From an uncultured Acidobacteriota bacterium (GTDB lineage: Bacteria > Acidobacteriota > Thermoanaerobaculia > Multivoradales > JAHEKO01), in assembly GCA_963713825.1 (NCBI GenBank), contig CAVQNG010000025.1, positions 892,415 to 956,414 of the forward strand: a DNA stretch of 64,000 bases, read 5' to 3'. The notes under the pieces are model-generated. The model did not search any database. It saw only the letters and a program-made list of their open reading frames with translations, and was not told the DNA's origin. How positions within the stretch are numbered: the stretch's first letter is position 1; every line of letters starts with the position of its first letter. Shown piece by piece: positions 22,936-44,129 of the stretch. Made by a program: the position numbers and the translations under genes.

Positions 22936-24603
22936 ATGACCTCCGGACTCGACAGGGAAACTCTCGAACTCAGTTTGGAGGCCTTTCGCGATTTCGCAGC
23001 GGCAAAGCTGTCGGACGACGTGCTTCTCGACCTGGATGCTCGGGACGAGTTTCCTGTGGACCTGGTTCGCGAGCTCTGTGGGTCGGGTTTGGGTATTCAA
23101 TTGCTGTTCATCGACGAGGAGTACGGTGGTATGGGTGGCGGAGCCTTCGATGTCTACCGGATCTGCGAGGCGCTTGCAGAGGTGGACCTGGGGATCGCTA
23201 CCGGGGTCCTGGCAACCTTTCTCGGTAGCGATCCGATTCGCTTCGGCGGCTCCGAGGAACAGAAGAAACACTGGCTCGGACGAATTGCCGAGGAGGGACT
23301 TCTCTTTGCCTACTGTGCTACCGAGCCGGAGGCGGGAAGCGATCTTGGCGCCCTCAAGTCGACCGCCGAGAGGATCGAGAAGGACGGCGAGGTTGTCGGC
23401 TACTCGATCAGCGGCAGCAAGCAGTGGATCAGCAACGGCGGCTTTGCGGATGTCTATACCGTGCTCGCCACCGCGCCCGACGGGCCGAGCTGGTTCATCG
23501 TCGAAGCCGGTGCCGAAGGCTTGAGCCCTGGCCAGCCGGAGGACAAGCACGGAATTCGCGCCAGCAATACCGCCGCAGTCGGTCTGACCGACGTCAAGGT
23601 CGATGCCGATCGACTCGTTGGTGGCAAGGAGGGGCAAGGGCTTCTCCAGGCGCAGGCAGTGTTCGGCTACACACGACTGATGGTCGCCGCGTTCGGCCTG
23701 GGTGGTGGATGGGCGGCTCTCGATCGCGCGATTCCCTATTCCACTGAGAGAATCCAGGGTGGCAGCCCGCTTTCAGAGAAGCAGGGTTTCACCCACAAGT
23801 TGATCGTGCCCAACGTGGCGTGGCTCGAAGCCGGTCGTGCCTACATCGAAGAGACCGCGCGACGGATCGACAGTGGAGAAGGAACTCTCAATACCGAAGG
23901 GGCCATTGCCAAGTACCTTTCGAGCGAAGCCGGCCTGAAGGCAGCGGAGGCCAGTATCCAGGCCCTGGGTGGCTATGGCTACACCCGCGAGTACATGGTG
24001 GAGAAGATCCGGCGCGATGTGCGCATCACGACGATCTACGAGGGCACTTCCGAGATTCTGGAGATGACCATCGCGCGGGATCTCTGGCAGCTCCACCTCA
24101 AAACGCGGGGCGAGCATTTCCACGAGCGGGCGCGCACATTCGAGACCTTGCACTCGAGGCACCCGAACCTGGGCGCTGACATCGTGGCTTTGACGTTTCA
24201 TGCTCTGGCCGAGGTCATGGAGCGATCGCGAGTGGCGCGATTGACAAGGAACCAGCACCTGCTGCTCCGGTTGGGCGAGCTGATCGCTTACGCGGAAGGG
24301 GCTGCGGGCCTGGTCGGCAGGGCGGCTGAGTCGGCGGAGGGTGCGCTCGACTCGAAAGCCGATCGCCGCATGAATCATGAGACCCTGGCGATCCTCGGTC
24401 GGATCTGTGCGCGACAAGCCGCCTCGATGGTGGCATCCCAGGGGATCCAATGGGTCGTCGGCGCTGGCGGAGTCGCTGGGCCGGCCGGCGTCGGGGACCT
24501 CGAAGCCGCGTTGGACGTGGCTCGAATACACCAGGCTCAGGCAGGCCTGATGGAAGATCTGAATCTGGCGGCCGATCGGATCTACGATCGCCAGACCGCA
24601 TGA
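22936..24603 (+). CDS. Acyl-CoA/acyl-ACP dehydrogenase with C-terminal extension, PKS-associated
   Basis: TEPEAGSD, GSKQWISNG, KHGIRAS, LGGYGYTREY, IYEGTSEI (catalytic Glu position). Confidence 0.9.
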   Translation: MTSGLDRETLELSLEAFRDFAAAKLSDDVLLDLDARDEFPVDLVRELCGSGLGIQLLFIDEEYGGMGGGAFDVYRICEALAEVDLGIATGVLATFLGSDPIRFGGSEEQKKHWLGRIAEEGLLFAYCATEPEAGSDLGALKSTAERIEKDGEVVGYSISGSKQWISNGGFADVYTVLATAPDGPSWFIVEAGAEGLSPGQPEDKHGIRASNTAAVGLTDVKVDADRLVGGKEGQGLLQAQAVFGYTRLMVAAFGLGGGWAALDRAIPYSTERIQGGSPLSEKQGFTHKLIVPNVAWLEAGRAYIEETARRIDSGEGTLNTEGAIAKYLSSEAGLKAAEASIQALGGYGYTREYMVEKIRRDVRITTIYEGTSEILEMTIARDLWQLHLKTRGEHFHERARTFETLHSRHPNLGADIVALTFHALAEVMERSRVARLTRNQHLLLRLGELIAYAEGAAGLVGRAAESAEGALDSKADRRMNHETLAILGRICARQAASMVASQGIQWVVGAGGVAGPAGVGDLEAALDVARIHQAQAGLMEDLNLAADRIYDRQTA

Positions 24604-24702: not shown

Positions 24703-27700
24703 ATGAAGAACAGCAGACATCGGGCAGTCGCCATCGTTGGTGTCGGGGCGGTGCTTCCGGATGCGCCGGACGCTCCGACCTTCTGGGAGAACATCAAACA
24801 GAGTCGGTACAGCATCAGTGAGGTTCCCAAAGAACGGTGGGATCCAGAGCTGTTCTGGGATCCCGACCCCAAGGCGCCGGCGAAGACCTACTCGAAGATC
24901 GGCGGCTGGGTGAAGGAGTGGGCCTGGGAGCCGCTGAAGTGGAATCTGCCAATCCCACCGAGAGTGGGCGAGTCCATGGATCGGACCCAGAAGTGGGCCC
25001 TGGTGGGCGCTCGCGAGGCATTGGCAGACTATGGGTATCCGCAGCGCCCCCTGGACCGTGAACGGACAGCCGTGATCCTGGGCAACGCCATGGGCGGCGA
25101 CCTTCACTACGAGACGGCCACCCGTATCTCCTATCCCGAGATCGCCCAGGAGCTGCGGCGAGCGCCGAGTTTCGCGGCGCTGCCGGAGGAAGTCCGGGCC
25201 AAGGTCAGCGACGAGCTCGGCAGCCAGGTGAGTGAGCTCTATCCCCGGATCACCGAAGACACGATGCCAGGAGAGCTGGCGAACATCATTGCCGGCCGGA
25301 TTGCCAATCTGTTCGACTTTCATGGACCGAACTACGTGGTCGATGCGGCCTGCGCTTCCGCCATGGCAGCGATTCACGCCGCCATCGAGGGGCTCGAGGA
25401 AGAGGACTACGACGCCGTTCTGACGGGTGGAATCGACGCCAACATGAGCGCCGCTACGTATACCAAGTTCTGCAAGATCGGCGCCCTTTCCGCGACCGGG
25501 ACCCGGCCGTTCGCCGATGGCGCCGATGGCTTCGTCATGGGCGAAGGAGCGGCCATCTTCTTGTTGAAGCGGCTGCGCGATGCCGAGCGGGACGGTGACT
25601 CCATCTATGCCGTGATTCGCGGTCTGGGCGGATCGAGTGATGGCCGGGGCAAGGGGATCACGGCGCCCAATCCGGTCGGTCAACGATTGGCGGTGGAGAG
25701 AGCCTGGAGACGGGCTGGACTGGTTCCAGATGGGGCCACGCTCATCGAAGGGCACGGCACTTCGACACGGGTCGGAGACGTAGTGGAGCTGCAGTGTCTG
25801 ACCGAGGCATTCATCCCCTACGGATTTGCACCCGGCTCGCTGCCTCTCGGCTCGGTCAAGTCGAACATCGGCCACCTCAAGGGCGCGGCCGGTGCGGCTG
25901 GGATTCTGAAGGCGACCTATGCCTTGCGGGACCAGGTCCTACCTCCGAGCCTCGGTTTCGAGCGCCCCAATCCCAATATCGACTTCACGAGCTGCCCATT
26001 CTTCGTCAATACGAAGCTGCGGCCCTGGACGGCTCGAGAAGGACAGGTGAGGCGGGCTGGCGTCAGTGCTTTCGGCTTTGGTGGAACCAACTTCCATGCG
26101 ATTCTGGAGGAGTACGTTCCCGGCCAGATTGTCGACCGGCCAGAACCTGTCCTTACCGTGGCCCGAGAGTTTGGTTCATCGGCTGTCACGAAGAGCGAAA
26201 AGGTGCCGCTGCGGGGCGCCCTGGTCCTGGGCGGTGATTCCCTGGCCGATGTCGAGGTCAGACTCAAAGGTGTGCTCGCCAAGGCAGAGTCTGGAGAGCT
26301 GCCGCAAGTCCAGGCACCAGCTGAAGCGGACCTGCGAAGCACCACCCGGTTGGCAATCGACTACGGTGACGGCGCTGAGTTGATCAAGAAAGGCGGCAGG
26401 GCGCTGTCGACGATCGAGTCGGGCAAGCTCGAGACCTGGAAGGCGCTCCGGGGTCGAGGCATCTTCCTTGGAACGGGCCAGCCGCCCAAGGTCGCCATGC
26501 TCTTTACGGGTCAGGGATCGCAGTATCTCAACATGCTGAGACAGCTGGCCTCGGACGAGCCGGTGGTGACCGAGACCTTTCGCGAGGCCGACGAGGTCAT
26601 GAAGCCGCTGCTCGGCCGCCCTCTGACCGAGTACCTGTTCGTCGACCCCATGGGTCCGCTCGAAGAAGAGGCCGCCAATGATGCGCTGCGCCAGACAGCC
26701 ATCACCCAACCGGCGGTGCTGGCGACGGACATAGCTCTGTTGAGGCTCCTGGGTACCTATGGTGTCGTGCCAGACATGGTGATGGGCCACAGCCTCGGTG
26801 AGTACGGCGCACTGGTGGCTTCGGGGGCGATCAGCTTCGCTCACGCCCTGGAGGCCGTCAGTGCCCGTGGGCAGGAGATGAGCCGGATCTCGACGGACGA
26901 CAACGGCTGGATGGCCGCGGTCTTCGCCCCCTTGGAGGAGATCGAGCGCATTCTCTCGACGATCGAGGGCTACGTCGTTGTGGCCAATATCAACAGCTAT
27001 AGCGAAGCGGTCATCGGCGGCGCCAGCCAGGCCGTCGAGAGGGCCATCGAGGCGCTGCAAGCGGCTGGGTACCAGGCTCAGCGACTACCGGTGAGCCACG
27101 CTTTTCACACGCAGATCGTGGCTCCATCCAGCGCCGCAGTTCGGCAGGTGTTGGGAAGGATGGGACTGCAGCCGCCGGAGATTCCCGTTGTCGCCAACGT
27201 CAGCGGCGACTTCTACCCGATGGGACCGGGAGTCGAGCCCGAGATGATCGAAATTCTCGCCCGTCAGGTCGCCGAACCCGTGCAGTTCGTCAAGGGATTG
27301 GAGGCTCTGTACCGTGCCGGCACGAGGGTGTTTGTCGAGTGTGGCCCGAAACGGGCCCTGCAAGGCATGGTTCGAAGCGTCTTTCAAGAGCGCGACGACG
27401 CCGTTTCCCTGTCCACGAATCATCCGCGCATGGGTGACGTGGCCTCCTTCAACCAGGCCCTGTGCGGACTGTACTCGGCAGGGCTGGGTGTCGGCAGGGT
27501 TCCTGTTGCCGAGGAGCCCATCGTCATGCGGAGCCCGGTCGGGTCGCGGCCCGCCCTGGCCGTGGACTCCGAGATCGAGTCGATTCAGGCACCGGCCGAT
27601 GCGGCAGGTGTCGACGCCTCTCGTCTCGACAAGGCCGCCTACCTCGAGTTGGGACAGATGTTCGCCGGTTTCCTCGACAAAGGCCTCGAAGTGGTGGGCC

Positions 27701-30700
27701 GCAAGAGCGCGCCCACAACCTCCGAGCGCGGGGTCGTGATTACAGGTGCGGCCATCGGATTGCCGGGTACCGCGAAGGTGTTCGACGACTCGAATCTGGG
27801 ACGACTCTTGACGGGCCAGCAGTTCATCGGAGAGGTACCGGACGATCTGCGACAGGAGATGGTGGCGAGGAACATCACGAGACTGGTGAAGAGCGAGAAC
27901 GGTGGCCCGAGATTCGAGACCATCGAGGGCGTCGATGAGGTGATCAAGCTGGCGGCGCGCCGAGGGGAATTGGATCTGGTCGAAGAGTTCGGCTTCCCGA
28001 GCGACCGCCTGGAAGCGCTGGACGTGGTGACCGAGTTGGCCATCGGATCGGGACTCGACGCCCTCCGGGATGCTGGACTACCGCTCGTCAGGCGCTACAA
28101 AACCACGACGACTGGCAGCAAGCTCCCTGACCAATGGGGCCTGGCCGACGAGGTGCGCGACGAAACCGGCGTGATCTTCGCGTCCGCCTTCCCGGGCGTC
28201 AACTATTTCGCCAGGGAGTCGGGTCGTTACTACACCGCGCAGGCCGCCCAACGACGCCTCGAGGAGCTGCAGAGTCTGAAAGACCGGATGAGCTCGAGCG
28301 GAACGGTTTCCGATGAGTCCATGAGCGAGTTGGATCGGCATCTGGACGAGGCGCGAGAAGAAGTCGAGGCCAGCCCCTACACCTTCGATCGACGATTCCT
28401 CTTCAGACTCTTGTCGATGGGCCACTCCCAGATGGCCGAGTTCATCGGCGCCCGGGGGCCGAACACACAGATCAACGCAGCCTGTGCCAGTGGTACACAG
28501 GCCATCGGTTTGGCCTCGGACTGGATCCGCGCTGGTCGTTGCCGTCGAGTCGTGATCGTCTCGGCGGACGACGTGACGAGCGACGATTTGATGGGCTGGA
28601 TCGGAGCCGGCTTCCTGGCCACGGGTGCGGCGGCTACCGATGCCGAGGTCGAGGAGGCCGCCATCCCGTTCGATCGGCGTCGTCACGGCATGCTGATCGG
28701 CATGGGGGCGGCGGCAATCGTCGTGGAAAGCGAGGAGTCGGCAAGCGAGAGAGGGATTCAGCCCATCTGCGAGGTGCTGGCGACCGCCACGGCCAACAGC
28801 GCCTATCACGGCACCCGTCTCGATGTTGCCCATATCTCCGAGACGATGGAACGGCTCATTACCGAGGCCGAAAAGAAATGGGGTATCGATCGATCTCAGA
28901 TCGCTCCGGAGACGGTCTTTATCTCCCATGAAACCTACACACCTGCCAGGGGTGGCAGTGCGCAGGCCGAGATCTTTGCCCTCCGAAGTGTCTTCGGAGA
29001 GCTGGCTGACAAAATTGTCATAGCGAACACCAAGGGCTATACGGGACATCCGATGGGAGTGGGAATCGAGGACGTCCTGGCCATCAAGGCCCTGGAGACC
29101 GGTTTGGTACCTCCGGTGGCCAACTTCAAGGAAGTCGACCCGGAGCTCGGAGAGCTCAATCTGTCCCGTGGTGGCAGCTACCCGGTGCGCTATGCGCTGC
29201 GGCTGGCCGCCGGATTCGGATCGCAGATCAGCATGGTATTGCTCCGATGGGTCCCCGCCCCGGGTGGCCAACGCCCGGAGATCGACCAGCTGGGCTACGA
29301 CTATCGTCGCGTCGAGCCAGAGAGATGGCGGCAATGGTTGGACTGGGCCAGCGGTCATCCAGGTGCCGAAGTCGAAGTCGAGCACCGGACTCTGCGGATC
29401 AGAGACGAGGGGCCGCCGAGCCAGGTCCTGCCTCGGCCAGTGGCAAACCAGGAGCACCCCGCAGCTCCACCTGCCGATTTCAGCCGTCCTGCCCAGGTCG
29501 CATCTGAGCAGGAGCCGACGGCGGCAGCCGGCCAAGATCCATCCGAGCCGTCGCCGCAGCCCATCCGGCCTTCGACTGCTTCGGTGGCTCCACCTCCAAC
29601 CCCTGTTGGTGGCTTGGATCCCATCCAGAAACGCGTCTTGGAGATCGTGGCGGCGACGACTGGCTATCCGGAAGAGATGTTGGACCTGGATCTGGACATG
29701 GAGGCCGATCTGGGGATCGACACGGTGAAGCAGGCGGAGATGTTCGCGGCGATCCGCGAGGAGTGGGACATCCCGCGTGACGATACGTTGCAGCTGCGGG
29801 ACTACCCGACATTGGCCCGAGCGATTCAGTTCGTCTTCGACCGACGGCCCGACCTGAAGGGCCAGGAGGTGATAGCTGCAGCTGCGGCCCCTGCAGCCGT
29901 CGAGAGCCAGGCGGAATCTGCGTCCGACGACGCGGTCCATCCCGTTCAAAAGCGAGTTCTGGAGATCGTCGCGGCGACGACTGGCTATCCGGAAGAGATG
30001 TTGGATCTGGATCTGGACATGGAGGCCGATCTGGGGATCGACACGGTGAAGCAGGCGGAGATGTTCGCGGCGATCCGCGAGGAGTGGGACATTCCGCGTG
30101 ACGACACGTTGCAGCTGCGGGACTACCCGACATTGGCCCGAGCGATTCAGTTCGTCTTCGACCGACGGCCTGATCTCGCTCCGGGAGCGACCGCAGATGC
30201 TTCCGCCAGTGCTCCCGAGACTCCGGTTCCTGGGACTGAAGAAGAGCACACTCGGGAAATACCTACTGCCGCGACTTCGGTGCACCGCAGGGTGCCGGCC
30301 GTGATGCTGTTACCCGCTCTCGACCTCTGCAAGAGGACCGGCGTCCGATTGCAGAAGGGCTCGCGTGTGGTTGTCATGGCGGACAGGGGTGGTGTCGGCA
30401 AGGCCCTGGAGCAGCGACTCGAACGATTGGGTGCCGAGGTTCTCCTCCTGGAGGCCAACCTCGATGCCGAGGAGGTCGTGCCTCGTCTCGAGGAGTGGAA
30501 GAGGGATGGCGAGGTGCAGGGGATGTACTGGCTTCCCGCGCTCGATGCGTCTGGAGATGCATCCAGCTCCGTGCCCGAGGAGTGGCAGGCGGGCCTGACG
30601 CGCCGGGTCAAGTTGTTGTTCCAGGTTGCAAAGGTGCTGTACGACTCCTTGAATCGAGCCGATTCGTTCCTGGTTGCCGGCACCCGCCTGGGAGGTCGGC

Positions 30701-32758
30701 ACGGCTACGATGAAGCTGGGGCTTGGGCCCCACTCGGAGGCGGAGTCTGCGGCTTCACCAAGGCCCTCAAGAGGGAAAGGCCAGCGTCGCTCATCAAGGT
30801 CGTCGACTTCGAGCCCTCACGGGCGACCGCGGCTCCGGCCGATCGGCTCATCGAGGAGACTCTGCGGGATCCCGGCTCGGTCGAAGTGGGTTACTTCGGA
30901 GCCGAGCGATGGGGAGTCGGTCTGCGGGAGGAGGCCCTGGAAGAAGCCGCCGAACCTGTCGAGATGGGCGCTGAAAGTGTCTTTGTTGTCACCGGAGCCG
31001 CTGGCAGCATCGTTTCGGCGATCGTGGCGGATCTGGCGCAAGGCTCGCAAGGCATCTTTCATTTGCTGGATCTCGCACCGCCTCCCGACCCTGAAGAAGA
31101 AGACCTGCAGCGATTTCGTTCGGACCCCGAGTCTCTGAGGATGGAGCTCTTCGAGCGCATGAAGGCCGAAGGGGAACGGGCCACCCCAGCCAAGGTGGAG
31201 CGCCAGCTCTCCGTCCTCGAGCGGTCTCGATCGGCTCTGGAAGCCATAGAGTCCGTGGAGGCTGTCGGTGGGCAGGCGCACTACCACTCGGTTGACCTGC
31301 TCGACGCCGAGGCGGTGACTCGAGTTATCGACGAGGTGCGCGAGCGCCATGGCAGGATCGACTTCCTCATCCACGCCGCCGGCCTCGAGATCAGCCATGC
31401 CCTGAGCGACAAGAGTGCCGAGGAGTTCGACCTCGTTTTCGACGTCAAGAGCCAGGGTTGGTTCCATCTTCTCGAAGCGGCAGCAGAGATGCCCCTGGGC
31501 GCGACGGTTGTGTTCAGCTCCATCGCGGGGCGTTTCGGCAACGCGGGTCAAACGGACTACAGTGCGGCCAACGATTTGCTCTGCAAACTCACCTCGAATC
31601 TGCGTAGGAGTCGCCCCCAGACGCGCGGTGTGGCGATCGACTGGACCGCCTGGGCTGGAATCGGAATGGCCAGTCGCGGATCGATCCCGAAAATGATGGA
31701 ACTGGCCGGGATCGGAATGTTGTCGCCCGAGTCGGCCCTGCCGATCGTCCGGCAGGAGCTCACAGCCGGAACCCGGGGCGAGGTGGTGATTGCCGAGTCC
31801 CTGGGTTTATTGCTGGAGGACTGGGATCCGGAGGGCGGGTTGGACTCCGAAGCCATTCGGTCAAGGCAGCGGGGACCGATGATCGCCGGCTTCGAATCAC
31901 GGCAGACGCCACGGGGTCTGGTGGCCGAAGGACTGTTGAGCCCCACTGAGCAGCCGTTCCTCGACGACCATCGGATCGAAGGAACAGCGGTCTTGCCAGG
32001 AGTCATGGGAATCGAGGCCTTTGCCGAGGTCGCCGGTCTTCTGGTGCCTGATCGGCAGGTCACGAGACTCGAGGAGGTGGAGTTCCTGTCGCCCTTCAAG
32101 TTCTATCGGGATGAGCCCCGGGCTGTGGAGGTGTCGGCCTTTCTGGGTCTGGAAGGGGAGGAGGTCGTTGCCGCTTGTCGATTGCTGGGCCGGCGGCAAT
32201 TGGCCCTGCAAGCGGAGGAACAGGAAACCGTGCACTTCGTCGGTCGAGCCTGGATGGGAGATCCGTCCCCTGCTGCTGCTTCTATCCAAGCTCCAGCAGC
32301 TCCCCAGGAAGCTCTGCGCGGGTGCGGACATCTATCGCGTCTATTTCCACGGTCCGGCCTACCAGGTACTCGACCTCGCATGGCGACAAGAGTCGAGTCT
32401 GATCGGCAGGTTGTCAGAAGAGCTTCCTCCGAATCACCTTCCGAAGGAGCGAGCCCTGCAAATGGCTCCGCGCCTCATCGAGCTCTGTTTTCAGACAGCC
32501 GGACTCTGGGAGATTTCACAGAGTGGCAGGCTGGGCCTTCCCTGGAAGGTGGCGTCGGTCAGCGTTCATCGACCCGAAGACGCCGCTCGGGGTCGCATCT
32601 TGGCGGTCGTGCAGCCGGCCTCCGACGGTGGTTTCGATGCCCAGGTCATCGACGAGGCAGGCAATCTACTGGTGGATCTGTCGGGCTACAGGACCGTCGA
32701 GTCTGCAACGGAGGTCGAGCCTGAAGCACTGGCCAAGCTGCGCAGCTTCCTGGGCTAG
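24703..32758 (+). CDS. Iterative type I PKS / Pfa-like synthase, KS-AT-KS-ACP-ACP-KR-DH (frameshift near 32280-32325)
   Basis: KS1 DAACAS/EGHGTST/KSNIGH; AT GHSLG and HAFH; KS2 NAACAS/SHETYT/TKGYTGH; ACP LGIDTVKQ x2; KR GQTDYSAAN; DH HRIEGTAVLP, with YFHGPAYQ continuing in the +1 frame to TAG 32758. Confidence 0.9.
29617..30177 (+). repeat. Direct duplication of the ACP-coding segment (~240 bp, offset 321 bp)
   Basis: Two near-identical copies encoding QKRVLEIVAATTGYPEEM...FVFDRRPDL, with a few synonymous differences. Confidence 0.95.
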
Positions 32759-32776: not shown

Positions 32777-33562
32777 ATGAATCCGAGAGAGGGAGCCCAT
32801 CACCAGAGGTCGAGTCCTGGCCCCTGGTGGCTGGCGAAGGGTCTCGAAGAGCTTCCCACCAACCTGGATTGGCTGAGCTCGGAAGAGCACCGACATCTGG
32901 CGAGACTCGGGGTCGAGAAGCGGCGCCACGACTGGCTGCTTGGACGCTGGACTGCCAAATCGGCACTCCTGCAAAGCCCTTACTTTCCGGGCTCCGGCAC
33001 GGCTCCTGAGGAATTGACCGTCTGGCAGGCCGCAGACGGGGCTCCGGAAGCTCTGTTCCGAGGGCGAGCTCTACCGCTGACTCTCTCTATCAGCCATCGA
33101 AGTGGTCGAGGATTGTGTGTTCTGGCCCCCGAGGCGCTGCTTGTCGGCTGTGACCTCGAGACAGTCGAGGCCCGAAGCCCTGCCTTCTTGCAGGACTACT
33201 TCACGTCCGATGAGCAGGCTGCTCTGCGGGCGGCTCCTGCCAACGGCAGAGATCGAATCGCGACACTGTTCTGGGGGGCGAAGGAGAGCGCCCTGAAGGC
33301 ACTGAGGCTAGGGCTGAGAGCCGATACCCGACGGATCCGGGTCGAATTGCCTGCCGAGTCGGGGGCAGACGAGAAATGGTGCAACCTGGTCGTGCGGGAT
33401 AGGGAGTCCGATCGGGGGTTCGGAGGGTGGTTTCGGATGCTGGAAGGGCTGACCTTGGTGGTGGTTTCCTCGCCTCCTTCCGAGGCTCCTGTGTCTCTGG
33501 TAGGAAATTCCAGATCTGGCAGCTGGTCAGAGGGCAGGGGGGGAAAAGGTGGCGACCTCTGA
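32777..33562 (+). CDS. Sfp-type 4'-phosphopantetheinyl transferase
   Basis: WLLGRWTAK, LSISHR, VGCDLE, FWGAKESALKA; immediately downstream of the PKS. Confidence 0.9.
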   Translation: MNPREGAHHQRSSPGPWWLAKGLEELPTNLDWLSSEEHRHLARLGVEKRRHDWLLGRWTAKSALLQSPYFPGSGTAPEELTVWQAADGAPEALFRGRALPLTLSISHRSGRGLCVLAPEALLVGCDLETVEARSPAFLQDYFTSDEQAALRAAPANGRDRIATLFWGAKESALKALRLGLRADTRRIRVELPAESGADEKWCNLVVRDRESDRGFGGWFRMLEGLTLVVVSSPPSEAPVSLVGNSRSGSWSEGRGGKGGDL

Positions 33563-34825: not shown

Positions 34826-37800
34826 TCAGGGCTGAAACTGTACCGCCAACTCATGCCACATCTTCACCGGAACACCGTCCTTGGTGGCGGCCCTGAAGGT
34901 CGCCCTACGGGCCGCTTCCAGGGTCTCCTCGTCGAGGCCGACCTTCTGTCTCAGGCCTTCCACCAACCTGGCCTCCAGGACCTGGCCGTTCTCATCGACC
35001 AGTACCGCGATTCGAACCGTGCCCGTCGCTCCGACTCGCCGGGCCACTTCTGAGTAGGCCGGTGGCCGGAACGACTGCACCAGGGGTCCGATGACTCCCG
35101 GTCCCTGCTCGACCAGATCTCCCGGCTGCGTCGCTGTCGCCTCTTCGGCTGGCGGCGCACTCGGCAGATCTGGCTCTGGCTCGGTTGCCTCCGGTTCAGT
35201 TGATGAATCCGGGCTTTCTGGCGGCTCGCCTCCCTCGGCTGTCAAGGGCGGGCTGGTCTCGAGTCCGGCGCTCTCCGAGTCCAATGAGATGGGCTCTTCG
35301 GCATCTCGATCTGCACCAAGCGAGGTGGAATTGGCGAGCTCGTCCTGGCCGAAAGGCGCGGACTCGGCTTCCTGAATGGTCGCGTCCCCGTTGTCGGTAG
35401 TCAGGTCCTGGCTTGTCGCTGCAGGCTCGGTCGAGTCGGGGATGAGCTCTGCGGAGGCCCTGGCGTCCAGCTCACCATCGGCGGCAAACTCCGGCGTCGA
35501 GATCAGCTCTTGAACCCTCTGGAGGTCCTCTTCGACTCGCCTCTCCAACTCGGGATCCGCGGTGCCCGCCTGAGTCTCTCGAGGTGGCGGCTGCTGGGCG
35601 ACGTCGGTCTGGGGCTGGGTTTCGCCGGCTGAGGCCTCATCGACCGCATTGTCTTCGGGAGCGACCTGCAAGACAGGCTCTGCGGGTGCTTGATCTTCGG
35701 GTTCAGGGGAAGGTGCAGCCTGTTCTCGGGTCGCTGCCGGGGGAGCTGCCCGAGTTGAACTGTCTTGGGGTGCTGTCTGATCCTCCGGGTCATCGGGATC
35801 GGGATCCAGACTGGCCTCTACCGCCTCGGGACGAAAGATCTCGGTTCTGGTGACCTGTGGTGACGCCATCCCCGAAGAATCCTGTGAATCCGGCGACTCA
35901 CCCAGGCGGCCTGCGGCCAGGTACCCACCGATCGCGAGCAAGACCACCACGGGCAGCAGCCTGGACAGCCACTTGAGGAAACCAGGACGCTGCTTCTCCT
36001 CCTCCTCGTCGGCTTCTTCCCCGACTCCTTCGACGATTGCCTCGTCCAGAAGGTCTTCCAAGGGCTCGGTCGATTGCTCGTCAACCTCTTCGGCTGCCGG
36101 TTCCGTTACGGCTGTGTCACGCTCCAGGGCCGTCGGCTCGCTCTTCTTGGTGGCCGACTCGGGCAGATCCAGCAACTCGCGAACGTAGCTACTCATCTCT
36201 CTTTGCCCTGGAGTCGGGTCGAACTCGGCCAGCAGCTCTTCGAGGCCGCCGAGCAGCTCGCCTGCCGTCTCGTACCGTTCGTCGGTCTCCTTGGCCAGTG
36301 CCTTGAGCAACAGGCCCTTGACTCGAGAGGGGATAGCCGGGTCCTGGATCACCCTTTCCGGCGTCTCACACTCCCGAACGGCTTCCAGCACGGCCAGCTC
36401 GCTTTCGCCAGTGAAGAGCCGCTCACCGGTGAGCATCTCGAAGAGCAGCGTGCCGGTGGAGAAGATGTCGGAGCGCGGATCGATGGGGCGCCCCCAGGCT
36501 TGCTCGGGCGACATGTACTGGAGCTTCCCCTTCAGGGCACCCATCTGTGTGGTGCTGATCTTGGACACCGCTTTGGCGATTCCGAAGTCACAGAGCTTGA
36601 TGTCGCCTTCATAGCTGATCAGAACATTCTGGGGTGAGACATCGCGGTGCACGAGTCCGAGCTCGGTGTTGTTGAAGTCCTTGCTGCGGTGCGCATAGTC
36701 GAGAGCGTCGGCGATCCGGGATGCGATGTAGAGTGCCAAGCCGGCTGGCAGTGGCTTGTCCCTCTTGCGTCCGGCATCGAGTAGGTGGCGGAGATTTTGT
36801 CCCTCGACATACTCCATGGCGATGAAGTAGTCATCATCGACCTTGCCCAGGTCGTAGATGTGGGTGATGTTCTTGTGATTCAGTTGGGCGGCCAACTTGG
36901 CCTCGTCGATGAACATGTCGACGAAATCCTGGTTCTCGGCGGGTTGAGGGAGAATCTTCTTGATCGCGACTCGCTTCTCGAAGCCCTCGACTCCCTGACG
37001 GCGCGCCTTCCAGACTTCGGCCATGCCGCCGAGGCCGATTCGTTCTTCGAGGGAGTACTCACCGAACTCGATCACAGGCTCGGAAGCCTGCTCCGGCTCC
37101 GGCTCGACTGCATCGACTGCCTGGTCGGGTTCTTCCGAGACGTCCTCTTCGTCGGCTGCTTCCGAGGTCTCTTCTGGCTCGTCTTCCTCCGCCTCGAGCT
37201 CTTCGGAAGTCTCAACCGCGTCCATCTCGTCGGCCTCTTCGGAAGCCGGCTCGTCAGGCTCGACATCGAGCGGGATGACGGGACCGTCCGGGGACCGGGG
37301 CTTGGCGATGTCGAGGTCACCGAGGGCCTGCGATAGCAGACTGTCGACGTCTGTCGTTGTCTCACGATCGACCTCGGTCTTGTCAGGCTCGGTTGCAGCC
37401 CCCAAGGAGGCAGCGAGAACGCCGGCCAGGGTATCGCTGAGCTTGGCTTCGAGATCGTCGTCCCGGTCTTCGACAGCAGGGGGCGTCTCGGGCTTCGGTG
37501 GAGCTGGCGTTGCGGCGGTTTCGCGCAAGAGCTCGGCTACATCCAGTTCTTCCTCCGGCTCGCCGACTTCCCTCGCCTGGGCTTCCACCGCATCGACGAG
37601 TGCCGGGACCGCCTCCTTGGCCAGCTCCTCCAGGTCTGACAGATCCATCATGCTGTCGTCTTGACTGGCGGCTGGCGCTTCAGCGGCGGCGGTCTCTTCG
37701 GGCTCTTCCTCGTCCTCCTCTACCGGCTGCACCGCAGTTGCGACTTCAACCTCGGCAGCTTCGACCTCTTCCTCGGTTTCTTCGGATTCGAGATCTTCCA

Positions 37801-38333
37801 ACTCGATCTCCTCTGAAGAGGTCTCATCGCTGGGGGTGGTTTCTTCTGCAGGGTCTTGCTTTGCCTCGGATGCGGCTGCTTGTTTCGCGATGTCCTTGTC
37901 CAGGATGTCATCGAGGAGATCGCCGAAGATCTCCTCCGAAGAGAGGATTCGAACATCCGCTGCCGTGTCGGTCGCGGCCTTCTTGTCGCTCGCGGTGGAG
38001 AGCTTGTCTTTGATTGTTGCGATCAGCTCTTCGGTCTGAACAGGCTTGGTAAGGACAGCTTCGACGTCCTCGCCATCAACCGGGCTCTCTTCTTGGGAGC
38101 TCAAGAGCACGACCCCTGGTCCGCCACTGCGGCGAGAAAAGGTCCGCACGAGATCGTCGATCCCCTTGAGCTCGTCGTTCAAGAGAACGAGCTGTGGGGC
38201 GAACTCGGAGGCTGCCCTCAGAGCCTGTGCGCGGCTCTTTACCGTCTTGACCAGCCAGCCCTGAGAGGCCAGCACGGACCGAACGAGATCGATGGTCGAA
38301 GCTTTCGTCTTCCGCCAGTAGGATCAACGCCAT
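34826..38333 (-). CDS. Receiver-like domain - acidic linker - Ser/Thr kinase - TM - Pro/acidic stalk - TonB C-terminal domain (frameshift at ~38304)
   Basis: MALILLAEDE start joins the main ORF after removing one A; GLGGMAEV, VAIKK, HRDVSPQN, DFG, YMSPE; TM; AY..VARR.G..G.V...VLVDENG..TonB_C. Confidence 0.85.
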
Positions 38334-40736: not shown

Positions 40737-43700
40737 ATGAGACATTCGAGTCCGTTGGCCTTCGCGGCCGTGATTCTGCTGCTCGGCCCGATGACCCTTG
40801 CGGCGCCCGCCGGCGCCGAGTACACCACCCACAAAATGGAGGTCGCCCTGGATCCTGTGGATGGCGAAATCCGGGTGACCGACCGAATCCAGCTGGGTTC
40901 GACGCTCGGCGATGAGCCGGTGGAGTTCCTTCTCAATGCTGCATTGGAGATCGAGAGCTCGAGCCCGCCGGTGGAACAAGTGCCGCTCGGCGAATTCGAT
41001 GGCTTCTTCGGGATCAACGGTGCCAGCATCGAGCTCGATTCCGACCTCGAGCTGGCCCGATACCGCCTGACGTCGATCCCCGATGACGGACTCCTGACGG
41101 TCTCGTACCAGGGGGGCATGGATTTCGGTCTCTCCGCCCAGAAGGAGGAGTACACCCGTGGCTTCCGGGAGACGGCAGGGATCGTCGGCGAGGAAGGGGT
41201 CTACCTGGCGGCGAGCGGGTTCTGGTACCCGTATTTCAGCGCGTCGCTCATCGAGTTCGATCTCGCTATCGATCAGCCGTCAGACTGGCATGTGATCAGC
41301 CAGGGAAATGGGGCGTCTCGGGGTGATGACGGACGAGCTGTCTGGTCTTCGGGTGGTCCCATGGATGAGATCTATCTCGTCGGGGGCCCCCTGATCGCCT
41401 ACCGAGAGGCCGCCGGCGCCGTCGAGGCGCAGGTCTACCTTCACGAAGCCGACGATGCGCTGGCTGACAAATACCTGAAAGCGACGGCGCAATATGTCGA
41501 GATGTATCGAGAGCTCATTGGCCCCTACCCATACGAGAAATTCGCTCTGGTAGAGAACTTCTGGGAGACAGGCTATGGGATGCCCTCGTTCACCCTGCTG
41601 GGCCCGCAGGTCATTCGCTTTCCTTTCATCCTGACCTCCTCCTATCCTCACGAGATTCTCCACAACTGGTGGGGCAACTCCGTCTTCGTGGACTATGCCA
41701 CCGGCAACTGGTGCGAGGGCCTTACGGCCTACATGGCCGACCACTTGATCCAGGAGCAACGCGGCAAAGGAGAGGACTACCGGCGTGCGACGGTGCAGAA
41801 ATATCGCAACTACGTGAAGGAAAGCCGGGACTTTCCGTTGAAAGACTTTCGCTCTCGCCATAGCGCCGCAACGGAAGCCGTCGGCTATGGGAAGACGCTG
41901 ATGGGTTACCACATGCTGCGGCTGCATGTCGGTGACGAGGCTTTCCGCCGCAGCATGGCTCGGTTCTATCGCGATTTCAGGAACAAGCGCGCTTCATTCG
42001 GTGATCTTCAGGCCACCTTCGAAGCTGAAACGGGAGAGGATCTCACCTGGTTCTTCGAGCCGTGGGTCGAGCGCCCAGGTGCTGCCGCGCTCGAGATCGC
42101 GGTGCAGGGCGTACAGGAGTCGGACGGTGGCTTCACTGTCAACGCCTCCCTCGTCCAGAGCCAGGCAGCCGATTTCTTCGAGCTCGAAGTGCCGATCGCC
42201 CTGCTGACCGAGAGCGGTACCGAAGTCACGGTGGTTCGCACCACTGGCAGAGAGACTCCGTTCACCCTCGAAGTCGCCTCCCGACCGCTGGCCATCCAAG
42301 CCGATCCCCAGTTCGATGTGTTCAGACTTCTGGACGCGCGCGAGATCCCGCCATCCATTGGTCAGATCTTCGGTGAGCCGGAGATTCTGGCAGTGCTGCC
42401 ATCGGCGGCAGACGAGTCCGAGCTGGAGGCCTACCGGGCTCTGGCCGAGGGTTGGCAGAGCGATAGTCACTCCGTCGAAGTGGTGTTGGACAGCGCCCTG
42501 GAAAGCCTGCCGTCGGATCGGGCCGTCTGGGTCCTGGGACGCGAGAATCGGCTGGCGGAGGAGCTTTTCGGGGAGGGTCTGGCGAGAGTCGAGGTCAGTC
42601 CGGAGCGGTTGGGCCTGGGTGAAGAAGAGGTGGCTTGGAGCGATCACTCCATGGTTGTCATTCGTCGTCATCCCGCCCAGGTCGACAAGGCTGTGGGTTG
42701 GTTGGTCGTCGAGCCCCGAGCGGCCTTTGCTGGCCTGGGTCGCAAGCTGCCACATTACGGCAAGTACTCGTACCTGGCCTTCGAGGGCGAGGAGCCGGCA
42801 AACGTGGTGAAGGGTCAGTGGCCTACCAGTGACTCCCCCTTGCTCGTCGATCTGCGCGCCGAGGGCGAAGCCCGTGGCACTGCGCTGCCGGCGATGCAGC
42901 TGCCGGAGAGGCAGGCCCTGGCGGATCTGCCCCCCGTCTTCTCCCAGTCTCGTTTGATGGAGCACGTCGAGTACCTGGCCTCAACCGAACTCGAAGGCAG
43001 AGGAGTAGGTACTGCAGGGCTCGAAGAGGCAGCTCGGTATCTCGTCGGGCAGTTCGAGCAAGCGGGACTGGAACCCGCTGGAGACAACGGCTCGTTCTAT
43101 CAACGTTTCACCATGCAGCAGGGACCCGAGGGAGCACCGGTTGATGTGACCAACGTCATCGGAGTGCTGCCAGGGGCTCGAGCCGATTGGAGTGATCAGG
43201 CCGTGGTTGTCGGCGCTCATTTCGATCACCTCGGGTCTGGCTGGCCGGACGTGCACAGCGGTGACGAGGGGAAGATCCATCCTGGAGCGGACGACAACGC
43301 GAGCGGTGTCGCGGTTCTCATCGAGCTGGCCAAGGCTCTGGCGGAAGGCGAGTCCCCGCAGAGGAGTCTGGTCTTCGTCGGCTTCACCGGTGAGGAGGCC
43401 GGTCGGGCTGGCTCGAAGTACTACGTGGCCAATCCGATACCCGTGCCCCTGTCCGGCATTCGAGCGGTCGTCAATATCGACACGGTCGGGCGGTTGGGCG
43501 AAGGTGCTGTTTCGATCCTGGGAACGGGCACCGCGGACGAGTGGCAGCACATCTTCCGAGGGGCTTCCTATGTCACCGGCGTGGACAGCCGCAACATTCC
43601 TGAATCGGCGGAGGCCTCGGATCAGATGAGCTTCATCGAGAAGGGGATCCCGGGAGTGCAGATCTTCACGCAGGCCCATGGTGACTACCATCGGCCGGGT

Positions 43701-44129
43701 GACACGGCGGACAAGATCGACGGCGCCGGCCTGGTCAAAGTAGCAACGCTGGTCAAAGAGTCCGTCGTCTATCTGGGAGGGCGCGAAGATCCCTTGACGG
43801 TAAAGATCGAAGGGCAGTCGTCAGGTCCAGCGAGCGGTCCTCCAGCGGCAGGTCCGTCGGGAGGACGTCGGGTGCGCTTCGGTACGGTGCCGGATTTCGC
43901 CTTCCAGGGGCCCGGAGTCAAGGTGAGCGAAGTCTCGGCAGACTCGCCTGCGGAGAAGGCCGGTTTTCTGGCAGGTGACACGCTGATGGCTATCGGCGAC
44001 CAGGAAGTGACGGATTTGCGAACCTACTCTCAGATCCTCCGCACCCTGGAACCAGGCCAGACTGTCGATGCGAAGGTATTGCGAGAGGGTGAAGAGATCG
44101 TCTTGCCCGTCACGGTGGAAGAACGCTGA
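40737..44129 (+). CDS. Exported M1-like metallopeptidase / M28 peptidase / PDZ fusion
   Basis: Signal peptide; HEILH..NWCEG gluzincin motif; GAHFDH, GADDNASG, GEE, DYH M28 ligands; FGTVPDF..SPAEKAG...GD PDZ. Confidence 0.88.
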   Translation: MRHSSPLAFAAVILLLGPMTLAAPAGAEYTTHKMEVALDPVDGEIRVTDRIQLGSTLGDEPVEFLLNAALEIESSSPPVEQVPLGEFDGFFGINGASIELDSDLELARYRLTSIPDDGLLTVSYQGGMDFGLSAQKEEYTRGFRETAGIVGEEGVYLAASGFWYPYFSASLIEFDLAIDQPSDWHVISQGNGASRGDDGRAVWSSGGPMDEIYLVGGPLIAYREAAGAVEAQVYLHEADDALADKYLKATAQYVEMYRELIGPYPYEKFALVENFWETGYGMPSFTLLGPQVIRFPFILTSSYPHEILHNWWGNSVFVDYATGNWCEGLTAYMADHLIQEQRGKGEDYRRATVQKYRNYVKESRDFPLKDFRSRHSAATEAVGYGKTLMGYHMLRLHVGDEAFRRSMARFYRDFRNKRASFGDLQATFEAETGEDLTWFFEPWVERPGAAALEIAVQGVQESDGGFTVNASLVQSQAADFFELEVPIALLTESGTEVTVVRTTGRETPFTLEVASRPLAIQADPQFDVFRLLDAREIPPSIGQIFGEPEILAVLPSAADESELEAYRALAEGWQSDSHSVEVVLDSALESLPSDRAVWVLGRENRLAEELFGEGLARVEVSPERLGLGEEEVAWSDHSMVVIRRHPAQVDKAVGWLVVEPRAAFAGLGRKLPHYGKYSYLAFEGEEPANVVKGQWPTSDSPLLVDLRAEGEARGTALPAMQLPERQALADLPPVFSQSRLMEHVEYLASTELEGRGVGTAGLEEAARYLVGQFEQAGLEPAGDNGSFYQRFTMQQGPEGAPVDVTNVIGVLPGARADWSDQAVVVGAHFDHLGSGWPDVHSGDEGKIHPGADDNASGVAVLIELAKALAEGESPQRSLVFVGFTGEEAGRAGSKYYVANPIPVPLSGIRAVVNIDTVGRLGEGAVSILGTGTADEWQHIFRGASYVTGVDSRNIPESAEASDQMSFIEKGIPGVQIFTQAHGDYHRPGDTADKIDGAGLVKVATLVKESVVYLGGREDPLTVKIEGQSSGPASGPPAAGPSGGRRVRFGTVPDFAFQGPGVKVSEVSADSPAEKAGFLAGDTLMAIGDQEVTDLRTYSQILRTLEPGQTVDAKVLREGEEIVLPVTVEER

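Follow-up and report, generated by a model that had tools for sequence, protein, structure and literature searches.

Can an acyl carrier protein (ACP) operate with threonine at the position where serine normally holds the prosthetic arm? For the carriers of fatty-acid, polyketide, and non-ribosomal peptide synthesis, 4'-phosphopantetheine is taken to be attached to a conserved Ser without exception, and both motif definitions and annotation rules have this assumption built in. The locus considered here departs from it. It lies in a 64,000-nucleotide stretch of DNA from an uncultured Acidobacteriota bacterium (GenBank assembly GCA_963713825.1, contig CAVQNG010000025.1, positions 892,415 to 956,414), which will be called the window and whose numbering is used below; unless another strand is named, all features are on its forward (+) strand. 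The window encodes an iterative synthase resembling the so-called Type R secondary lipid synthases (24703..32758), whose two tandem ACPs both have Thr at the phosphopantetheine site, and, directly downstream, a 4'-phosphopantetheinyl transferase (PPTase; 32777..33562). Thr at this site is a trait of the whole synthase family, not of a single gene, and it probably serves as the attachment residue itself.

The departure is exact in both the DNA and its translation, as the initial annotation, made from the sequence alone, had reported. ACP domain 1 (29617..29871; identified by a PF00550 match, an AlphaFold model, and Foldseek) and ACP domain 2 (29938..30177; identified by its sequence and the ACP profile) both read DLGIDTVKQAEMF within the carrier stretch DLDMEADLGIDTVKQAEMF, and the Thr codons, ACG at 29722-29724 and at 30043-30045, correspond to residues 1674 and 1781. 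The surrounding DNA, gat ctg ggg atc gac ACG gtg aag cag gcg gag atg ttc, is identical in 29680-29740 and 30000-30060, and the two copies share 224 of the 241 bases compared. The Pfam PP-binding profile (PF00550) matches both ACPs at 44.2 bits, the cut-off being 20.8. A PF00550 scan of the whole genome, in which the synthase ACPs score 29 bits, gave 11 matches; these two are the only ones inside the window (contig 25, 892415-956414), along the contig the nearest further one lies about 738 kb away from the cluster, and the remaining nine all have Ser at the site (9/9). The scan thus bears out the earlier statement that no Ser-type ACP can be recognized in the cluster. By profile and by fold these domains are carrier proteins; the Ser expected at the N-terminus of helix II is missing, Thr being there instead.

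The same residue recurs throughout the homologues. Of 8000 candidates scored in a protein search with the ACP region, 5015 reached E 0.001 or better. In the best 120 of these together with the query, Thr occupies the site in 585 of 587 ACPs (the other two being one Ser and one gap), 119 of the 121 proteins have Thr-only carriers, and the consensus is DLG(V/I)DTVKQAE. A scan of species-representative genomes listed at least 432 relatives, from which 79 loci were kept; their record titles are mostly Acidobacteriota, but also name Gemmatimonadota, Calditrichia, Rhodothermales, Longimicrobiales, and Thermoanaerobaculia. Here Thr was found in 301 of 304 ACPs, with alignment gaps in the other three and Ser in none. 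All four Thr codons are used in these loci (ACG 156, ACC 121, ACT 12, and ACA 12), and from every one of them Ser is reachable by a single base change. The expectation that GxDT would be conserved among homologous KS-AT-KS-ACP synthases is therefore upheld by both sets, and the outcome named beforehand as fatal to the idea, Ser in most close homologues, did not occur. A read error, already thought unlikely, and chance are likewise ruled out as the origin of Thr by its conservation across the family.

Moving outward, an index-free search of 1.84 billion representative proteins gave 5675 matches at E 0.001 or better, 680 of them at 1e-30 or better. The 592 domains in the best 150 of these proteins have Thr in 435 cases, Ser in 139, gaps in 14, and Ala, Asp, Gly, and Cys once each. 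Counted by protein, 107 are all-Thr, 12 have Thr and gaps, 23 are all-Ser, one has Ser and a gap, three mix Ser and Thr, and four have one degenerate copy (A, D, G, or C). Wider drift would be expected at a dead site, so such near-exclusive use of hydroxyl residues argues against one. The Ser-type matches are classical Pfa carriers, DLGIDSIKRVEIL and DLGIDSIKKAQLF, and differ from the Thr types at positions +1, +3, +4, and +7 of helix II, which are I/R/V/L in the former and V/Q/A/F in the latter. Thr carriers of this kind appear to be undescribed in the literature covered, i.e., open-licence PMC papers and bioRxiv; no report of Thr at the phosphopantetheine site or of the DTVKQAE motif was found there.

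Among full-length representatives of the two types, a second ketosynthase (KS2) is present in 14 of the 15 Thr types versus one of the 16 Ser types. That one, P0210, has the same KS-AT-KS2 architecture, six Ser carriers (DLGIDSVKVAEIF), and a fused PPTase of the same subfamily, so that its array reads SSSSSS; mixed arrays occur in close kin (P0076 STTTTT, P0274 TTTTST, and P0191 STT). For the surroundings of the P0210 gene, a metagenome scan yielded no match. On a tree of 35 KS1 domains, the Ser/Thr label changes twice, as against a mean of 10.7 in shuffled data (0 of 500 shuffles were as low). The unconstrained tree nests P0210 within the Thr forms (unstarred support 86-92), and the constraint that all Thr forms make one clade is not rejected (AU p 0.7). 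Whichever history applies to P0210, Ser and Thr take up one and the same position in enzymes of one kind. NCBI names P0210, P0141, and P0274, all from metagenome-assembled genomes, 'Candidatus Heimdallarchaeota archaeon'; either these are Asgard archaea with a bacterial-type lipid synthase, or the bins are contaminated.

Regarding the carrier itself, the predicted structure places Thr where an arm would be expected. Modelled by AlphaFold from an alignment of 43 sequences (pLDDT 89.5), ACP1 has helices at 2-15, 36-50, and 66-76 and resembles solved ACPs in Foldseek (TM 0.75-0.87, rmsd about 1.5 Å); Thr36 of the model is the first residue of helix II, i.e., the canonical attachment position. In the 43-sequence alignment A30, D31, L32, G33, D35, K38, and E41 are invariant, and all of these except A30 are flanking recognition residues around Thr36. 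Asp35, the residue beside the site, is described as required by AcpS and dispensable for Sfp in a preprint (10.1101/2025.01.28.635281). No conserved Ser or Cys that could serve as another attachment point exists elsewhere in the 587 domains, where no column exceeds 23% Ser or 20% Cys; the strongly conserved hydroxyl residues are three Thr only, those of KTGYP (97%), DT (100%), and PTL (100%).

The second component is the PPTase, an enzyme of 261 aa (PF01648 at 1.6e-18) whose open reading frame (ORF) starts 18 nt after the TAG at 32756-32758. The initial annotation had placed it 18 nt behind the synthase stop; the spacing is right, but this TAG terminates the synthase only after a change of frame. 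A search of the PDB with the single PPTase sequence gave no match at E 0.01 or better. The family profile matches AcpS, the fungal fatty-acid synthase (FAS) PPT, Sfp (7e-7), EntD, and human AASDHPPT, and the structure model (pLDDT 90, pTM 0.87) has full-length matches to AASDHPPT (1e-14), the Sfp-CoA-PCP structure 4mrt (3.9e-12), PptAb/PptT, and PcpS. Residues H107, D126, E128, W166, K169, E170, and K174 are invariant among 39 PPTases from the loci, with the motifs SLSH, GCDLE, and WSAKESALK; the window enzyme carries GCDLE, WGAKESALK, DGAP, and SISH. In its two-lobed fold, its metal-binding Asp/Glu pair, and its W/F-x-x-K-E-x-x-x-K motif, it is an Sfp-type (group II) enzyme.

Thr carriers and this PPTase clade travel together, as the initial annotation had suggested they might. 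A clade PPTase lies downstream in 64 of the 69 loci that include the end of the dehydratase (DH), within 400 nt in 30 and at 4-6 kb in 34; four of the remaining five contigs end within 150 nt, and L070 has no PPTase in 6.8 kb. A genome-wide test used a sample of 301 genomes of the phylum and counted as a close ACP relative any match at E 7e-18 or better; an unpublished genome, G152, is included among the 283 without one. Eighteen genomes have a close relative, and the site, read in four of them (G000, G119, G228, and G235), is Thr in all; seven genomes with only weak ACP matches (about 1e-11 to 1e-12) were all read, and all are Ser types with DLGIDSIK. In 16 of the 18 there is a match to the PPTase clade profile with 157-320 bits (274 bits for the window PPTase), and in five of these it lies on a contig other than that of the synthase. 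Of the other two, G300 has a match truncated where its contig ends (90.6 bits), and G235 (81% complete) has none, its synthase contig ending after 5.7 kb. None of the 283 other genomes reaches 157 bits, the best being 92 (G115, beside a Ser-type carrier) and the rest 68 or lower. The genomes being related, this is an association and not statistical proof.

In some relatives the association is covalent. Searching with the clade profile, we found the PPTase fused to the C-terminus in 17 fetched relatives, in the order KS-AT-KS2-ACPn-KR-DH-PPTase (P0196, P0217, P0227, P0171, P0180, P0153, P0237, P0076, P0243, P0210, P0274, P0218, P0192, P0255, P0249, P0226, and P0266). The carriers of 11 are all-Thr, three have Thr plus a degenerate copy, two have Thr plus one Ser (P0076 and P0274), and one is all-Ser (P0210). 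To our knowledge, a fused synthase-PPTase layout is otherwise known from the enediyne polyketide synthase PKSE. That enzyme is iterative, with the order KS-AT-ACP-KR-DH and a C-terminal PPTase like that of the fused relatives; it carries one ACP, of the Ser type, and is not known to contain a second KS. An apparent fusion in six Gemmatimonadota loci (L019, L022, L034, L037, L045, and L048) was rejected, because long open frames in GC-rich DNA produce the appearance: the PPTase is read in a different frame, and the synthase ORF stops before it.

The tree of 46 PPTases unites the free-standing enzymes that neighbour Thr synthases in one well-supported clade (SH-aLRT 98, 20/20 rows). The PPTases of Pfa-like synthases, Thr- and Ser-associated together, stand apart from other Sfp types (support 91), and the enzyme of P0210 groups with those of the Thr-type P0274 and P0218. 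Nearly all free-standing members of the clade have Cys125 of GCDLE, which adjoins the metal-binding Asp. This Cys was considered as a Thr-specific residue and discarded, since the same GCD occurs beside Ser-type carriers (G151 and G162) and the fused forms have GIDLE or GVDLE. The genome under study (G000) also has AcpS and three other Sfp-type PPTases, each a few kb from its own carriers, which suggests one private PPTase per carrier system. These PPTase and carrier sites are on contigs C4, C1, C14, and C34 (L091-L095 and L001-L011).

The synthase that these two components would serve is encoded by an ORF of about 8 kb starting at 24703, with about 5000 homologues by protein search; its layout, KS-AT-KS2-ACP-ACP-KR-DH, follows from the ORF translation and from Pfam and NCBIfam domains, and reading it through requires a frame change in the DH. 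The first ketosynthase (KS1, 24721..26112; PF00109 and PF02801, residues 7-419) has the motifs DAACAS, EGHGTST, and KSNIGH. It is followed by an acyltransferase (AT, 26500..27411; PF00698, residues 600-903) with GHSLGE, and by KS2 (27700..29382; a second PF00109 stretch and an ACP_syn_III match), which has a Cys (NAACASG) together with SHET and KGYTGH. Downstream of the ACPs are a ketoreductase (KR, 31201..31656; PF08659, residues 2167-2318) with YSAAN and the N-terminal half of the DH (31903..32262; PF21089, residues 2401-2479, and tblastn with homologues), which has HRIEGTAVLP in the start-codon frame. A +1 frame-change zone (32262..32330), where homologue alignments switch frame, then leads to the C-terminal half (32321..32758; a PF14765 match in the ORF 32021-32758), in the shifted frame and ending with the TAG given above. 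The catalytic motifs are maintained across the family: in 98 homologues longer than 2500 aa, regular-expression matching, in which misses may be motif variants, found AT GHSxGE in 98, the KS1 Cys in 91, one KS1 His motif in 94 and the other in 89, the KR Tyr in 95, and the DH His in 88, and the KS2 Cys is kept in all 97 aligned homologues.

A hydroxyl residue held in more than 99% of the carriers, in an intact synthase with no other carrier and a linked PPTase, makes phosphopantetheinylation of Thr the most economical reading, and one that we hold with moderate confidence on the strength of these sequence patterns. The PPTase of the cluster would move 4'-phosphopantetheine from CoA to the hydroxyl of the Thr that opens helix II. 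The holo-ACPs would then act as ordinary thiol carriers, with AT loading malonyl units, KS1 and KS2 condensing, and KR and DH processing the chain; the acyl-CoA dehydrogenase-like enzyme encoded upstream would probably desaturate the chain while it is tethered or act there as an enoyl reductase, a role suggested by its neighbourhood, and in many genomes it has EtfAB partners. In chemical terms, the dedicated PPTase may simply tolerate or prefer Thr in its helix-II context (DTVKQAE versus DSIKRVE). The modification of Thr, the cognate PPTase as its agent, and the part played by the dehydrogenase are all inferred.

Several points weigh against this reading. The one experimental precedent found points in the opposite direction: E. 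coli ACP with the substitution S36T is neither modified by 4'-phosphopantetheine nor functional (PMC3340395), so that a canonical PPTase/ACP pair does not accept Thr. The Ser-to-Thr change that abolished modification by AcpS is the same as that seen here, where, by contrast, Thr is the conserved natural state and is paired with a dedicated Sfp-type PPTase. No active-site change that would explain the use of Thr was found in the PPTase clade, whether in the alignment of 39 sequences, in the fused forms, or in comparisons with Ser-associated enzymes. The earlier suggestion of a chemically specialized PPTase accordingly finds no sequence support beyond clade membership, the catalytic motifs being the usual ones and the all-Ser P0210 having an enzyme of the same subfamily. 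As for P0210, it may be either a reversion from Thr or the nearest Ser-type sister. Moreover, PPTase genes adjoin Pfa-type synthases in general, according to Shulse and Allen (PMC3098273); with the genomes being related as well, the co-occurrence shows co-inheritance of the cluster only, and not an enzyme-substrate relationship. Lastly, for the copy in the window, the DH is interrupted by the frame change between 32262 and 32330, so that a complete enzyme may not result from it.

That interruption raises a separate, local question, namely whether the synthase of this particular genome is decaying or non-functional, in which case nothing would be made whatever Thr does. KS, AT, and KR were found with their motifs, as the initial annotation had stated; its inclusion of the DH among the intact domains does not hold, since the frame changes between about 32262 and 32330. 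In tblastn, the alignments to homologues keep to one frame until 32247-32262 and continue in the next from 32315-32330, and in the start-codon frame the last approximately 130 residues, up to a stop at 32724, are unrelated to them and rich in Arg, Gly, and Ser. The count of two ACPs is also low compared with the 3-6 given in the 2011 description of Type R and with the 4-6 of most homologues. Against decay, the 146 codons past the shift remain open and are 37-52% identical to the C-termini of homologues, and all motifs outside the frame change are intact. In addition, a genome of the same genus (G119, L103) has an unbroken gene of 2606 aa between the same neighbours, with one Thr-ACP and the same order of dehydrogenase, synthase, and PPTase. 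The indel cannot be placed against G119, the linker being variable and the DNA identity 75-82%. An assembly error of a single base is as possible an origin of the frame change as a recent lesion, and repeat collapse of near-identical ACPs during assembly is an equally possible cause of the low count in the window, and perhaps of the single ACP of G119. Taken together, we consider decay of this copy rather unlikely, and it leaves the question of the family untouched.

A rival explanation is that the Thr domains are never phosphopantetheinylated but form an ACP-derived scaffold or docking element, while the chain rides on a Ser-type ACP encoded elsewhere, e.g., the housekeeping AcpP, served by the neighbouring PPTase. 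The unmodified S36T protein of E. coli (PMC3340395) would fit this, as would the other Ser-type carriers of the genome, one of them AcpP-like with LGADSLD, and the relatives that add a single Ser-type ACP to a Thr array (P0076, P0191, P0141, P0229, and P0274). The scheme nevertheless fits poorly with the window, which has no Ser-type carrier, and with the homologues, since 119 of 121 proteins and all 79 loci have no Ser at the site in any carrier domain. Nor should a non-functional site keep one residue in more than 99% of its copies across four codons, or keep the DLGxD...K..E recognition surface invariant. Moreover, 11 synthases with Thr carriers only have the PPTase fused to them, and the genome already has AcpS and three other Sfp-type PPTases beside their own carriers. 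We regard a scaffold role as improbable.

Finally, the Thr hydroxyl might engage in other chemistry, i.e., direct carriage of acyl groups as O-esters or a different phosphodiester-linked group added by a PPTase-like enzyme, as strict retention of a hydroxyl fits any O-linkage and the Type R product is given as unknown (PMC3098273), but this is very improbable, given that the PPTase keeps all CoA/Mg-binding and catalytic motifs of the Sfp type and resembles Sfp, PptT, and AASDHPPT over the full length of its model, that a carrier lacking the arm of about 20 Å could hardly reach KS, AT, KR, and DH (general FAS and polyketide synthase knowledge), and that Ser and Thr carriers alternate within one protein in close kin, suggesting the same role.

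Returning to phosphopantetheine on Thr, the reading can be widened from this genome to its relatives, which comprise thousands of synthases from Acidobacteriota, Gemmatimonadota, Chloroflexota, Calditrichota, Bacteroidota-like, and Heimdallarchaeota-labelled genomes. We lean, a little more guardedly than for the synthase itself, towards the view that the whole family bears O-(4'-phosphopantetheinyl)threonine, which a co-evolved PPTase lineage would install.

The synthase architecture is not new, and by its sequence the window protein appears to be a Type R secondary lipid synthase, a layout catalogued in 2011. In that work (Shulse & Allen 2011, PLoS One 6:e20146, PMC3098273), the cluster termed Type R comprises a pfaA homologue, KS-MAT-CLF-ACP(3-6)-KR, with a downstream PPTase. 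It was reported from five genomes, with Koribacter, Solibacter, Elusimicrobium, and Roseiflexus as hosts; in Koribacter an acetyl-CoA carboxylase gene stands between synthase and PPTase. The domain order KS-MAT-KS2/CLF-tandem ACPs-KR is shared with the window, whose two ACPs fall below the range of 3-6. The PPTase motifs given there, x(G/D)xP (P1a) and hShxH (P1b'), correspond to DGAP and SISH of the window enzyme. The differences are these: as far as its accessible text goes, the paper treats the ACPs as ordinary, the word 'threonine' having 0 occurrences, whereas the ACPs of the window have Thr; its description includes neither a DH nor an upstream acyl-CoA dehydrogenase, whereas the window locus has both; and it calls the second KS a CLF, a label that, judged from the retained Cys, understates KS2. 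Loci titled Solibacteraceae or Candidatus Korobacteraceae (L018, L043, and L049, not the strains of 2011) share the gene order of the window, and their ACPs are 66-72% identical.

The closest Ser-type relatives among the matches of the 1.84-billion-protein search are the classical PfaA synthases (TIGR02813). These are alike in their tandem near-identical ACPs, in the DLGID-x-IK motif, and in having a dedicated PfaE-type PPTase; they differ in reading DLGIDSIKRVEIL, with Ser, and in that 15 of 16 Ser-type representatives have no second KS separating AT from the ACPs. PfaA is also the best NCBIfam model for the window synthase, which at 906.9 bits stays under the cut-off of 1010.1 bits and so falls outside the family, and none of the 16 neighbouring ORFs scanned is PfaB-, PfaC-, or PfaD-like.

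Directly 5' of the synthase is the acyl-CoA dehydrogenase-family gene mentioned above (22936..24603, 555 aa; Pfam Acyl-CoA_dh N, M, and C). In the core cluster this gene is conserved in first place, a homologue being found upstream of KS1 in 61 of the 62 loci with enough upstream DNA. Its best solved relatives are MCAD and butyryl-CoA dehydrogenase, and its closest named relatives also include Etf-dependent acryloyl-CoA and caffeyl-CoA reductases; in 35 of the 79 loci genes for EtfB and EtfA are found upstream of it. An extended form of the cluster is seen in L031 (54-4640 and 13270-18903) and 34 other loci, with a CCG/Fe-S protein, EtfB, and EtfA upstream and a carboxylase before the PPTase. 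In L031 the latter is a single chain of 1877 aa (biotin carboxylase-BCCP-carboxyltransferase) placed in the 4-6 kb gap between synthase and PPTase; a homologue occurs in 35 of the 79 loci, and the arrangement with the carboxylase between the two genes in 34. The layout of this chain resembles eukaryote-like acetyl-CoA carboxylase, and these extended clusters of Acidobacteriota look like a self-contained fatty-acid-type factory. The window contains none of the extension genes (CCG/Fe-S protein, EtfB, EtfA, and carboxylase).

The genes around the trio of dehydrogenase, synthase, and PPTase are unrelated to it: the downstream side has a Ser/Thr kinase, and the upstream side a PLP enzyme, an HD protein, and a penicillin amidase on the other strand. 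Two genes of the window are unusual fusions, namely a Ser/Thr kinase of 1149 aa with a C-terminal TonB_C domain (34826-38275, reverse strand) and a protein of 1130 aa in which a PDZ domain is joined to M1 and M28 peptidase domains (40737-44129, forward strand).

If Thr does bear the arm, the 'Ser only' rule for ACP and PCP domains would meet its first natural exception in these synthases, and the chemistry of a textbook modification would be extended. The weak carrier-profile scores of Thr ACPs (29 bits in the genome scan) would also be explained. For the cell, the combination of Thr with its helix-II surroundings could insulate these carriers from its other PPTases or from ACP hydrolases, and carrier and PPTase would form a naturally orthogonal pair, of use in protein labelling and pathway engineering. 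For the family, it would offer a way into the Type R synthases, a common group in soil phyla.

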